Virus record (IMG/VR): IMGVR_UViG_2721755725_000012
Reading direction: 5' to 3' (one strand)
Source: a virus
Lineage: Duplodnaviria > Heunggongvirae > Uroviricota > Caudoviricetes
DNA length: 49,338 nt
Of the stretch, positions 27,001 to 30,000 are shown piece by piece. How positions within the stretch are numbered: the stretch's first letter is position 1; every line of letters begins with the position of its first letter. The position numbers were made by a program.

Positions 27001-30000
27001 AACGACAAAACCCTTCGTCCAGTACTCGTAAAGAACATCGTCGCACTCTTCCTGATACCGGATGACCTTATCGCGGATTTCGGGTTTTACTTTGTTGGGA
27101 TTAATGGTTTGTAGCCAGCCGGCAAGTTTTCGAAGTGGCATGGACACCATATTGCGTTGTTTCCCATCCTCAGCAACCATAACGATTTCCGTTATAGTTG
27201 ACGCAAAACGCTGTCTTAACTTAGCCAACTGTGATTGCCAGGCCAGCCCCATCCCCGCAACGACAGGTTTCATGGGAACGTATGGTTCGCCATTATGGTT
27301 AACTACATAAAGAGAGTTGCCGTGAAACGGCACGGCCATCATATTCATCGGTTATTTCCTTTTAGTGATGAACCTTGTCTCACAGGAATCCAGCCCACAG
27401 AAAGGCACCGACAGCCAAACCGGTATCCTCAAGGGTCATCCTGAAAGGTTCTGTGTTGTGAGATGCGCGTGAGATGCGCAGAAATGACAAAGGCATCATT
27501 ACGGTGCCTGAGTGTTAAACAACTGTTTTGACTTTATTCACTTACATTTTGCCAATTTGCAGGATTTCGTGTTATCAATCCATGTAAGCAAACCTCATTT
27601 TTCAGCAAAATATTCTGCTTATCTGTCGATTCCCCAGCACGCCAGCGCGCTCTCCTGGTCACGACGGGATACCTGACCGTAACAGTTATTTGAGCGAATA
27701 CGGCAGTCCCTGCCACCGTCCTTAATCCACCAGCGAATCGCTTCGCAGGCACCTTTTCGATCACCTGCATTAATTCGTCTGTAAAACGTCGACGGGAAAC
27801 ACTTACCGGGACCAATGTTGTACGGACAGAATGACGCGATCCCCGCTTTCTGGGGTTCGGTCAGCGGCACTTTGATGTTTTTCTCCACCCATGCCAGCGC
27901 CTTATCACGCTCAATGGCGTTAACCTGGTCGCATTTTTCCTTCGACAACTTCATGCCCGGGACGACAGGTTTACCATCCACCAGGATGGCACCGCGGCAG
28001 ATGGTCCAGATACCCGTACCATCACGGTATGCTGTGGTGTGGTTACCTTCCTTTTCATCCAGAAACTGGTCGAGGATTTCAGGCGCAGACGCCCCTGCAC
28101 CAATCAGCGCCAGAACGGCAGCCGACAGGCCGTATCTGATTTTTGCGTTCATGGATATTTATCAGGATTTATCGATTTCAAATCCCTGGATATGTTAAGT
28201 CTTCAGGCCAGCGGTGGAGTCTTCAGAGAACCCGTAATTATTCCCGGTAGTTTTCCTCTGTAGGTTATCAACACATCCTGCGCCTCTAAAATGATGGGCC
28301 GCTTTTCCGGCAACGGACCATCCCCTTCACATAACCCGGCAGCAACATCCATGAAAAACTGCTTCGCCTGCTTTTTCGCCTCAGCTTCGTAAAACTCCAG
28401 CGTGGCACCTTCAGTACGGTCAAGACTAATCGCCACATCTGGCAACAACAGTGACGGATACCCACCAATTTCCAGTGCCACAGTAACAGTAATCTTATCC
28501 GGGTAATTATTTATCCCTTTAACAACCAGTTCGTATTTTTTCTTCATCGCTTTACTCTCCCCGCGCCGCCTTACGCTTATCTTCTTTAATCTTGAAATAA
28601 AGGTTTGTCAGATACGTCAGCAGGCCAAACAGCAGACTCCCCAGCACACCTATCGCCACCCACTGGGACGGAGAGACTTTGTCCAGCAGCTGCAGTAACC
28701 AGTATCCCGTCCCCACCGCTGACGTGGTGTATGACACACCCGTTGTGATTTTTTCCATCTGATGTATGTCTCCGTCACCGCCGACAGAAAATGAAAGTAA
28801 AGGAAAACAAAAAAGCCGCCAGTGTCACCCACTGACGGCCAACTCCGGGAGCCGTGATTATGGCATTCAGGCTCTGCTAAAAATGCCAGATAACATTCCG
28901 GCCTCCCCCGATTCAGGTTATAAATGACACAATATCTTGACAACATCCGTCACTGTCTGTCAGAAAATGTACTGCCATATAGAAGCAACATGTGAAGTAC
29001 ATCTATCCTTTTGAGCCAGCACCTCTCCACCGAAAGTCAGTGCTGGCTGTTTTTTTCCTTAATAAAGCATCTGTAACTGAAACAATCCGCATATTGATAA
29101 TATATTGACAGGCATCATTGCTGTCTGTGAAAAATAAGTCTCTACAAACATATAAGGCCTTTTAGCCAGCGTCTTCTTTTTCAGGTCAGTCGCTGGCTTT
29201 TTTTATTATGCTGCCGGTGCATTTATCTCCAGCACCAGACTTTCTATCTCAACGCCATACGCTGCATTTTTTGTAACATCCGTCAGCGTCAGCGCATTCA
29301 GTCCCAGTGTCAGACTGTCTTTTATAACCTGGAATGCCGGGCCAGCCACTCCATTCAGTTTCGGAGTAACCGTGGCACTGCCGGCGGTGAACACCAGCTC
29401 CAGCGTCTGCCAGTCGTTACCGTAATCGCCGAACTCCCCCAGCTTCGTGTTTCCGGCTTTCCTGTGATGCATCAGATTCACTCTGCCGTCAGTGGTCTGA
29501 GTGAAGTACGACATCAGGAACGGATTACCGGTACCCGTCATCGCCACACCATCAGGAACGGGAGCATCCGTATACAGATAAATCCCCAGCCCGAACTGAT
29601 TGTTGGTCAGTGCGCCTGACAGGCGGAACTTACAGTTCAGTCTGCCGCCCTGTGTCAGCAGGGTAATTGCGTCATCCACCGGATGCGTCAGGGACCAGGT
29701 TTTATTGCTCTGCTTGGTGATCTTAAATACACCATCTGACAACTGAATTCCGCCATCCTTAATGCTCCAGCCCTGCGCAGCAGCCTCTCCGGCTGCCGGC
29801 AGCAGGGAGATTGTGCGAACCGACGTATCTGCAGACGGACCCGATGGCGTGTTGCCGCCGGGCGAGGGTTTAATTTCCGGTGCCTTACCACTGATGAAGG
29901 CTGAGGTGCGCCCGGCTGCGTTCAGAATAGCGGTTGCCAGACGATCCGGAATAATGCTCCTGCGCGCCCATGAACTGAAATGTGTCGGGCGGTTTGATGA

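Follow-up and report, generated by a model that had tools for sequence, protein, structure and literature searches.

A YdfR-family (DUF1327) gene between the holin and endolysin genes of a prophage late operon, with a tentative link to RNase E

Introduction

What does a 114-codon gene do between the holin and the endolysin of a phage lysis cassette? The question is raised by a 49,338-nucleotide stretch of Caudoviricetes DNA (IMG/VR record IMGVR_UViG_2721755725_000012; the whole stretch is hereafter called the window), in which an original prediction had described such an ORF as an unrecognised gene and its position as unusual. We report that the encoded protein is almost certainly a member of the YdfR/DUF1327 family, analyse its expression set-up, distribution and relatives, and weigh what it may do late in infection.

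Results

The ORF begins with ATG, ends with TGA and occupies the minus strand (Table 1). The original prediction had not given the strand; its figures were all correct. The start follows the holin stop (TAA, 28554-28552) after a 4-nt gap, AGCG, and the ORF ends 50 nt before the gene of the SAR endolysin. The GGAGAG ribosome-binding site is present, contained in GGGGAGAG (28555-28562) within the last Gly-Glu codons of the holin. No transmembrane segment is seen, the highest Kyte-Doolittle mean over 19 residues being 1.18 as compared to 1.83 for the holin, and the predicted pI is 5.5. The original picture, in which a translatable gene of its own lies in the late operon between holin and endolysin and has neither membrane nor secretion signals, holds. 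Membership of the holin/antiholin class takes at least one transmembrane segment and is rejected by this hydropathy value; neither did the protein match any holin family in Pfam or PHROGs.

Table 1. Features of the holin-ydfR-endolysin region of the window.
Feature	Position	Strand	Description	Basis
ydfR-family (DUF1327) gene	28203..28547	minus	114 codons and TGA stop	ORF list, Pfam, PHROG, dN/dS
N-domain, codons 1-74	28326..28547	minus	strands 5-14, 18-27 and 37-43, helix 50-74	AF2
Pro/Gly-rich tail, codons 75-114	28206..28325	minus	predicted disordered; conserved among Escherichia alleles	
Shine-Dalgarno GGAGAG	28555..28560	minus	in the last holin codons, 7 nt 5' of the ydfR ATG	sequence
P21-type class II holin S, 68 aa	28552..28758	minus		Pfam PF04971, 112 bits
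ydfR-R spacer, 50 nt	28153..28202	minus	last 22 nt (28153-28174) are the conserved R leader	
SAR-type endolysin R, 177 aa	27619..28152	minus	hydrophobic N-terminus	Pfam Phage_lysozyme
ydfR cassette as compared to VT2-Sakai	28126..28543	minus	homology stops at 28544 and resumes at 28125	blastn

The ORF is part of a run of co-oriented late genes comprising a Q-like gene, a methylase gene, tRNAs, a nanS-p-like esterase gene, S, ydfR, R, ant, Rz and terminase. No convincing promoter or terminator of its own was found, no promoter-like site being apparent upstream of a start only 4 nt after S, and its GC content (0.46-0.50) resembles that of its neighbours. The marks of a moron (own promoter and/or terminator, deviant base composition) are thus not seen in the window gene. 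As read from the sequence, ydfR would be transcribed within the late operon and translated from the holin-embedded Shine-Dalgarno element. Compared with 26 distinct alleles, dN/dS was 0.2-0.45 wherever substitutions sufficed to measure it, alike in the N-domain and the tail, indicating that the ORF is under purifying selection. A chance or untranslated ORF is ruled out by these ratios, by conservation and by the full-length Pfam match described below.

Residues 1-112 aligned to positions 1-92 of the 93-position Pfam profile PF07041 (DUF1327) with 155.4 bits (gathering threshold, 25 bits; E=4.7e-46), and the protein also matched PHROG 406. An E. coli E2863 locus is 100% identical in DNA, its product being named 'YdfR family protein' in RefSeq (WP_000731236.1). 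K-12 YdfR was recovered by BLASTP at E=1e-23, with 47% identity over residues 1-74. The gene is thus not an unrecognised one; its domain is already catalogued as a DUF, and it occurs in K-12 and in thousands of E. coli prophages. It is likewise near certain that the window gene encodes a small, soluble, mildly acidic cytoplasmic protein and is one of the accessory genes that Escherichia and Shigella lambdoid prophages carry in their late operons. No NCBIfam model fits the ORF, a profile search against PDB sequences returned zero matches at E<=1, Foldseek against viral models (BFVD) zero at E<=1e-3, and neither the window protein nor two long alleles matched a PADLOC-DB defence profile at E<=0.1.

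Modelled with AF2 (mean pLDDT 90.3, pTM 0.78), the N-domain has a beta-beta-beta-alpha arrangement. Family-wide, Y53 and E54 do not vary, and Y5 hardly does. Residues 73-114 have pLDDT <50, yet dN/dS of tail codons 75-112 is 0.2-0.4. The tail is absent from K-12 YdfR and from distant family members. Alleles of 103, 114, 116, 140, 176, 183 and 287 aa have the N-domain in common and differ in the remainder; the 176-, 183- and 287-aa forms carry the tail followed by extra C-terminal modules, in which no Pfam domain was detected. At ...TPP|LA-stop the window allele departs from the long forms, and the 50-nt non-coding spacer comes next.

The order holin-ydfR-lysozyme is shared by the window, K-12 prophage Qin (essQ-ydfR-rrrQ), YYZ-2008 and E2863, and the arrangement is therefore not the oddity that it was first taken for. 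Neither is the gene rare: the protein is encoded by 101 of 427 phage records with a P21-type holin (about a quarter), and its DNA is matched in about half of the complete E. coli genomes (2924/5426), at 6162 places, as compared to 13911 places for the P21-type holin in the same collection. The holin lies <=20 nt upstream in 81 of the 90 Escherichia-type copies, a proximity that would be compatible with a role linked to lysis as well. In Escherichia the ydfR-R interval is hypervariable, with the 114-aa allele forming the commonest spacing class (29/90 copies). At the protein level, the ORF is 100% identical in H-19B, BP-4795 and many Stx1a/Stx2c-converting phages, 98.2% in YYZ-2008 and 95.5% in Stx2 phage 86, and in these relatives the gene directly follows the holin wherever both coordinates are listed. 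The window prophage, unlike its Stx-converting relatives, has no stx genes; its Q-like region and its nanS-p-like esterase gene are separated by a DNA methyltransferase gene and tRNA genes. A literature search for an ORF between S and R of Stx phages yielded nothing useful. By its own account, the original prediction would have been refuted by a lysis accessory gene that is common, conserved and of known function; of these attributes the first two hold and the third does not.

Comparison with phage VT2-Sakai, in which S is followed directly by R, revealed what ydfR displaces. In VT2-Sakai it is the endolysin that uses this GGAGAG element, again across a 4-nt gap, and 23 nt stand where the window has 418 nt. 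The latter comprise ydfR past its ATG, the ydfR-R spacer and the opening 9 codons (27 nt) of R. The alignment thus indicates that the Shine-Dalgarno slot used by ydfR belongs to R in ydfR-less phages, and that the cassette brings its own R 5' end. The window R allele starts MNAKIRYGL, a type that travels with ydfR: the R N-terminus is M[NS][ATV]KI[RK]Y[GS]L across ydfR-positive loci, as compared to MSRKLRYGL in the ydfR-less Sakai cassette. The R leader in the window, CGATAAATCCTGATAAATATCC, has no Shine-Dalgarno, and it or a close variant precedes R in every ydfR-positive locus examined, at S-R distances of 307-1596 nt. No unusual RNA structure was found in the ydfR-R spacer (z-score 0.0). 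The holin itself is of the family Phage_holin_2_1 ('Bacteriophage P21 holin S'), and in its window allele the dual-start motif is without its upstream Met.

Outside this setting, IMG/VR prophages contain stand-alone DUF1327 proteins of 72-86 aa that consist of the N-domain alone and are distantly homologous to it (hhalign probability 99.1%; Pfam 30.7-46.7 bits, cut-off 25). Their genes are found at the I-J and M-L junctions of the tail genes, past the tape measure gene, ahead of the holin or after Rz. As in the window, they are co-oriented with the late genes, but they have no tail and do not lie between S and R. In 11 of 11 such loci examined, the DUF1327 stop is followed after 5-30 nt by a convergent, opposite-strand gene of 79-110 aa. 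This gene falls into PHROG 10490 or PHROG 25324 in every locus but L005, where it has no PHROG match. This partner was found neither in the window nor in any Escherichia-type locus. A conserved 5' leader stays with the DUF1327 gene in L004, L005, L006 and L084 despite differing insertion sites, and in most distant loci its GC content is lower than that of the upstream flank. A search with a single distant protein against genome contigs gave no match, and tblastn of distant members against deposited phages found Escherichia phages only.

The K-12 paralogue supplies a biochemical lead. K-12 YdfR (Qin, b1555, P76160) belongs to the same Pfam family, and its gene lies 4 nt past the class II holin gene essQ, directly before the lysozyme gene rrrQ, with an R start region as in the window, ATAAATATC(C/T)ATGAAC. 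YdfR was found by a two-hybrid screen (PMC13232886, 2026), in which the signal of the full-length protein was construct-dependent and seen only with Rne 1-597, residues 1-72 being enough for the interaction with RNase E. Rne 1-598 co-eluted with Strep-YdfR, and DNase-resistant nucleic acid co-purified with YdfR, although the RNA may, by the authors' own account, have been bound by a contaminant; cells overproducing YdfR grew unimpaired and showed few transcript changes (PMC13232886). RNase E binding and RNA co-purification are reported for K-12 YdfR only and do not formally define the family. The same study cites Paradis-Bleau et al. 2014 for an envelope phenotype of ydfR, a gene of which the main text of that paper makes no mention; we suspect that any such phenotype could stem from polarity of the deletion cassette on the downstream lysozyme gene.

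Discussion

We tentatively favour, at rather less than even confidence, the reading that the window gene encodes a YdfR-family late accessory protein that is not part of the lysis machinery and acts on RNase E and/or RNA. That ydfR is accessory cargo rather than a component of the lysis machinery is suggested because N-domain-only homologues occupy unrelated late-operon sites of other prophages, because holin, endolysin and spanin are complete without it, and because many phage records have the same holin type without ydfR. Action on RNase E or RNA is, judging from the K-12 paralogue, its most likely biochemical role: the beta-beta-beta-alpha N-domain would bind RNA and/or the N-terminal, catalytic half of the host's RNase E and so modulate, late in infection, how fast host RNA or the long late phage transcript is turned over. 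Speculatively, partner-specific contacts might be added by the disordered but conserved tail and, in other alleles, by the variable C-terminal modules. The data on RNase E come from overproduction of a paralogue that is 47% identical in the N-domain only, and in this respect speak against carrying the role over.

The proximity to the holin invites another explanation, namely that cytoplasmic YdfR sets the timing of lysis by acting, like a soluble antiholin, on the C-terminal tail of the holin or on the supply of endolysin. A variant would need no such contact: by occupying the holin-embedded Shine-Dalgarno, ydfR would put R on a weak, SD-less leader, lowering or delaying endolysin. Much of the locus is consistent with this. 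The start abuts the holin stop in nine of ten Escherichia copies, ydfR takes the element that R uses in ydfR-less cassettes, and R stands behind the conserved SD-less leader in every ydfR-positive cassette examined. The overlap of the K-12 ydfR stop with the rrrQ start (ATGA) implies translational coupling, S and ydfR are in the same frame with one TAG between them in about 27 of 90 loci, and the upstream Met of the dual-start motif is missing from the window holin allele. Outright S-YdfR fusions occur in three loci and several database proteins, but they are rare, lie at a run of Gs and may represent sequencing errors or decay of cryptic prophages. Moreover, YdfR has no membrane segment, N-domain-only homologues lie among tail genes distant from any holin, about three quarters of the phage records with this holin lack ydfR, and overproduction of K-12 YdfR caused no growth or lysis phenotype. 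We consider a role in lysis timing unlikely.

The distant loci suggest, with still lower probability, a conflict gene of the moron type, DUF1327 being half of an antagonistic pair (exclusion, anti-defence or toxin-neutraliser) and the Escherichia S-R version a derivative that lost or no longer needs its partner. The invariable convergent gene, the leader conserved at differing sites, the lower GC content, the varying, moron-like late-operon position and the hypervariable ydfR-R interval would all fit. However, Escherichia-type loci, the window included, lack the partner; there is no PADLOC defence match and, in the window, no own promoter, terminator or GC anomaly, and the K-12 paralogue is not toxic when overproduced. 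A view that joins both strands, in which the N-domain is a late RNase E/RNA binder of temperate phages and the ancestral half of a mobile convergent conflict cassette with the PHROG 10490/25324 partner, is similarly doubtful; such a binder would shield the long transcript of the late genes or redirect RNA decay shortly before lysis. Least probable to us is that the 114-aa form is a functionless remnant, truncated from a multi-module protein of 183-287 aa and moved by recombination at S/R boundaries. Alleles of 103-287 aa do share the N-domain and differ beyond it, the window allele does break off from the long forms before a non-coding spacer, and the distance from ydfR to R does range from 307 to 1596 nt, but dN/dS is well below 1 in both halves, this allele forms the commonest spacing class, and its protein is 100% conserved across many independently sequenced Stx1a/Stx2c phages, H-19B and BP-4795.

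For this window alone the result has little significance, the gene being catalogued. The family, however, makes a reasonable target: few uncharacterised genes are as common in Shiga-toxin-type and other lambdoid prophages, its members are transcribed together with the genes that release toxin and virions, and the recent lead on RNase E/RNA binding can be tested directly. Should YdfR alter RNA decay or the supply of endolysin, it would influence when and in what yield phages are released and, in Stx phages with the same gene, the release of toxin too.

Set beside known systems, a close counterpart is K-12 YdfR. It shares the N-domain and the position of its gene, but it has 103 aa with an unrelated C-terminus, described as helical (PMC13232886), where the window protein has its 40-residue Pro/Gly-rich tail, and its stop overlaps the lysozyme start where the window has a 50-nt spacer. 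As to fold, comparison with the beta-beta-beta-alpha units of dsRBD and RNase H-like proteins gave a sequence identity of 4-17%, and the N-domain lacks the N-terminal helix alpha-1 of the dsRBD. In function, the favoured action on RNase E would place the protein beside T4 Srd, phiKZ Dip (gp37) and T7 gp0.7, small RNase E-targeting phage proteins that alter RNA decay during infection. Binding to the N-terminal half of RNase E has been reported for Srd, as for K-12 YdfR. Dip is described in PMC4980113. No likeness in sequence or fold to any of the three was detected in the window protein, for which DUF1327 is the sole Pfam family matched. They are early genes of virulent phages, whereas ydfR of the window is a late-operon gene of a temperate phage.

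Results

The ORF lying between the P21-type holin gene S and the SAR endolysin gene R is almost certainly a YdfR/DUF1327 gene, carried as an S-R cassette. Its product matches Pfam PF07041 (DUF1327) over the full length (155 bits; cut-off 25) and PHROG 406, annotated as 'unknown function'; NCBIfam holds no model for it. The DNA-identical locus of E. coli E2863 is annotated in RefSeq as 'YdfR family protein' (WP_000731236.1). The gene had originally been described as unrecognised and without a known motif, which these matches contradict. Every figure of that description (114 codons, 4 nt from the holin stop, a GGAGAG ribosome binding site, 50 nt to R) was confirmed on the sequence, to which we add only that the strand is minus. 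The predicted lack of a transmembrane segment was borne out as well, with a highest 19-residue Kyte-Doolittle mean of 1.18 versus 1.83 for the holin. The substitution pattern indicates a gene under purifying selection: comparing the window allele with 26 distinct alleles (gap-free alignment over codons 1-112), dN/dS was 0.2-0.45 wherever substitutions sufficed, and more diverged allele pairs gave this range for codons 1-74 and codons 75-112 separately.

Pfam identified the gene 5' of ydfR as 'Bacteriophage P21 holin S' (112 bits) and the gene 3' of it as a phage lysozyme whose N-terminus is hydrophobic, followed by an antirepressor (P22_AR_N) and the Rz spanin. ydfR shares the orientation of the late genes, a run that spans the Q-like region to the terminase and capsid genes. 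Our scan revealed no promoter-like or terminator-like site serving ydfR by itself, no unusual RNA structure in the ydfR-R spacer and no difference in GC content between ydfR and its neighbours.

Features of the lysis and late region of the window and sites of distant DUF1327 genes
Sequence	Feature	Position	Strand	Remarks
Window	ydfR ORF	28547-28203	minus	114 codons; TGA stop at 28205-28203
Window	Holin stop TAA	28554-28552	minus	4 bases, then ydfR ATG
Window	GGAGAG	28555-28560	minus	last two sense codons of holin ORF; 7 bases before ydfR ATG
Window	ydfR-R spacer	28153-28202	minus	50 bases; R ATG at 28152
Window	R leader CGATAAATCCTGATAAATATCC	28153-28174	minus	A/T-rich, conserved, without Shine-Dalgarno
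Window	Cassette	28126-28543	minus	ydfR, spacer and first nine codons of R
Window	Holin 5' end	28759-28767	minus	upstream of ATG 28758
Window	Hairpin region	28814-28840	minus	between esterase gene and holin
Window	Hydrophobic ORF	26633-26782	minus	49 codons; between antirepressor gene and Rz
Window	Antirepressor gene	26779-27348	minus	between endolysin and Rz
Window	Q-like gene	33501-34043		annotated DUF1133 in E2863
Window	DNA methyltransferase	31853-32911		between Q-like gene and nanS-p-like esterase
L004, L006, L022, L084	Distant DUF1327 gene			between tail genes I and J
L022	DUF1327 gene	4001-4219
L022	Convergent partner	4249-4548	opposite
L005	Distant DUF1327 gene			between M and L
L031, L064	Distant DUF1327 gene			directly 3' of tape measure gene
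L085-L087	Distant DUF1327 gene			past Q region, upstream of holin
L024	Distant DUF1327 gene			past Rz

In VT2-Sakai, which lacks ydfR, the holin stop is followed by 4 bases and the R start, and R uses the same GGAGAG. Sakai and the window are homologous up to 28544, just past the shared ATG, and again from 28125, 27 bases into R; these breaks therefore delimit the cassette. All ydfR-positive loci examined share an R N-terminus of the form M[NS][ATV]KI[RK]Y[GS]L (Sakai: MSRKLRYGL) and the R leader or a close variant of it, again with no Shine-Dalgarno sequence, whatever the distance from ydfR start to R start (307 to 1596 nt; the commonest class, 29 of 90 copies, is the 395 nt of the window). 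The left end is fixed: for 81 of 90 copies, no more than 20 nt lie between the end of a holin gene and the start of ydfR downstream of it. The interior is a mosaic: residues 1-74 (N-domain) occur in several variants, residues 75-112 form a conserved segment present in most Escherichia alleles, and optional C-terminal modules, none matching a Pfam family, extend the protein to 176, 183 or up to 287 aa.

The S/ydfR junction of the window reads ...GCG CGG GGA GAG TAA AGCG ATG on the minus strand. Two kinds of junction were seen (window 28548-28562, L007, L012, L050, L072, L035): TAA+AGCG as in the window (4 nt, out of frame), and TAG+ACG (3 nt, in frame) at about 27 of 90 loci; at these, reading through a single UAG would join holin and YdfR. 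Outright S-YdfR fusions, through 1-nt changes within the G run or immediately before it, were present at three loci and in several database proteins (P0010, P0068).

Proteins 100% identical to that of the window are encoded by H-19B, BP-4795 and dozens of Stx1a-, Stx2c- and Stx2-converting phages. A DUF1327 protein was found in 101 of the 427 phage records with a P21-type holin, about one in four. Among 5426 complete E. coli genomes, ydfR DNA matched at 6162 places in 2924 genomes (up to 8 copies per genome) and holin DNA at 13911 places in 4813. The original prediction had called a gene between S and R unusual; given this frequency, the order S-ydfR-R is not unusual in prophages of this kind, although S does lie directly next to R in most deposited phage records with a P21-type holin. 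Across a set with one genome for each bacterial species, Escherichia-type ydfR was confined to E. coli, E. ruysiae, E. albertii and Shigella, plus two metagenome bins that we take to be contamination. Loci L092 and L094, with a Qin-like ydfR in bins labelled Veillonella parvula and Bacillota, are most likely mis-binned E. coli contigs. When 1.84 billion representative proteins were searched exhaustively with HMMER, only 94 representatives were returned at E<=1e-3. DUF1327 is a small family of narrow range, yet extremely frequent in Escherichia, and the ORF, though correctly observed, is an already catalogued, very common gene rather than a new one.

The weakest matches of this search, proteins of 72-86 aa, consist of the N-domain alone. 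By sequence comparison they are genuine DUF1327 members (Pfam scores of 30.7-46.7 bits for three tested representatives, cut-off 25; profile-profile probability of 99.1% over 74 columns). Y53 and E54 are invariant across the family and Y5 nearly so. In IMG/VR prophage contigs the distant genes run in the same direction as the late genes but occupy differing sites (see table; neighbours were named from reading their translations). Such varied sites are difficult to square with a part in the lysis machinery, and their spread fits an accessory gene needing just late expression. At 11 of 11 distant loci a convergent gene of 79-110 aa on the opposite strand follows 5-30 nt beyond the DUF1327 stop; it matches PHROG 10490 or PHROG 25324, both 'unknown function', except at L005, where it matches no PHROG. 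At L004, L005, L006 and L084 the pair is preceded by a conserved 5' leader (CGCCGAAAGGC[A/T]GGAGTGA..ATG or a near match). The pair, with its differing sites in the late operon, looks like a mobile two-gene cassette. The partner is absent from the window and from all Escherichia-type loci.

AlphaFold2 modelled the whole protein with moderate confidence (pLDDT 62; below 50 for residues 73-114), and residues 1-77, from a deeper alignment with distant members added, with high confidence (pLDDT 90.3, pTM 0.78). The latter model has antiparallel strands 5-14, 18-27 and 37-43, then a long helix 50-74, without the first helix of a dsRBD. No solved structure matched the protein in sequence, and no viral structure model significantly matched its fold. 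The predicted fold is consistent with a nucleic-acid-binding module without establishing one.

Further features of the region were observed. The holin 5' end reads ATA CAT CAG ATG (IHQM), compared with ATG TAC CAG ATG (MYQM) or MKSM in most other alleles, nearly all from loci fetched via ydfR; the dual-start motif lacks its upstream Met, leaving only the 68-aa form possible. In phage 21 the longer S product is the antiholin. The hairpin region comprises an 11-bp GC-rich hairpin followed by TTTTTTGTTTT, a terminator-like site within the late transcription unit that presumably has to be read through by antitermination. The antirepressor gene (P22_AR_N and ORF11CD3 domains; PHROG 'anti-repressor Ant') forms an insertion between R and Rz that VT2-Sakai and YYZ-2008 share, so the lysis cassette has more than one interruption. 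The strongly hydrophobic ORF next to it, whose corresponding interval in E2863 is annotated 'hypothetical protein', is a second small embedded gene of the lysis region. The prophage carries no stx genes. In the region 31300-34050, the methyltransferase gene lies between the Q-like gene and the nanS-p-like esterase, together with tRNA-Ile and tRNA-Arg genes that are annotated at the identical locus of E2863; Stx phages have stx at this position.

Discussion

Results on K-12 YdfR are reported by Göpel et al. (RNA Biol 2026; PMC13232886). Full-length YdfR interacted with Rne 1-597 only; a fragment of residues 1-72 gave stronger RNase E signals; Rne 1-598 co-eluted, and DNase-resistant nucleic acid co-purified, with Strep-YdfR (PMC13232886). 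Overproduction altered few transcripts and left growth unaffected; the authors consider YdfR a possible RNA-binding protein, a contaminant not being excludable (PMC13232886). For a ydfR phenotype they refer to a genome-wide envelope screen, and the paper on that screen makes no mention of ydfR in its main text.

We tentatively favour a mechanism in which YdfR would bind RNase E and/or RNA late in infection, because this is the sole experimentally supported activity in the family, because it maps to the N-domain, the sole part common to all members, and because the fold is compatible. A role in lysis timing might be suggested by the invariant adjacency of ydfR to S, its use of the Shine-Dalgarno sequence that serves R elsewhere, the conserved R leader lacking one, and the in-frame or fused S-YdfR arrangements, but is unlikely in view of the homologues in the tail region and the ydfR-less cassettes. 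That ydfR belongs to a conflict or moron module, as the convergent partner in distant relatives could imply, seems quite doubtful, since the window itself gives no support, and a decaying remnant is improbable, as purifying selection speaks against it. RNase E and/or RNA binding gives the function of the YdfR family a concrete hypothesis now open to testing.

The name YdfR originates from the cryptic prophage Qin of K-12, where the order is essQ (holin), ydfR, rrrQ (lysozyme) and rzpQ. As in the window, ydfR of K-12 starts 4 bases past the holin stop. Over residues 1-74 the two proteins share 47% identity, and beyond that they are unrelated; the K-12 ydfR stop overlaps the rrrQ start (ATGA), whereas that of the window lies 50 bases upstream of R.
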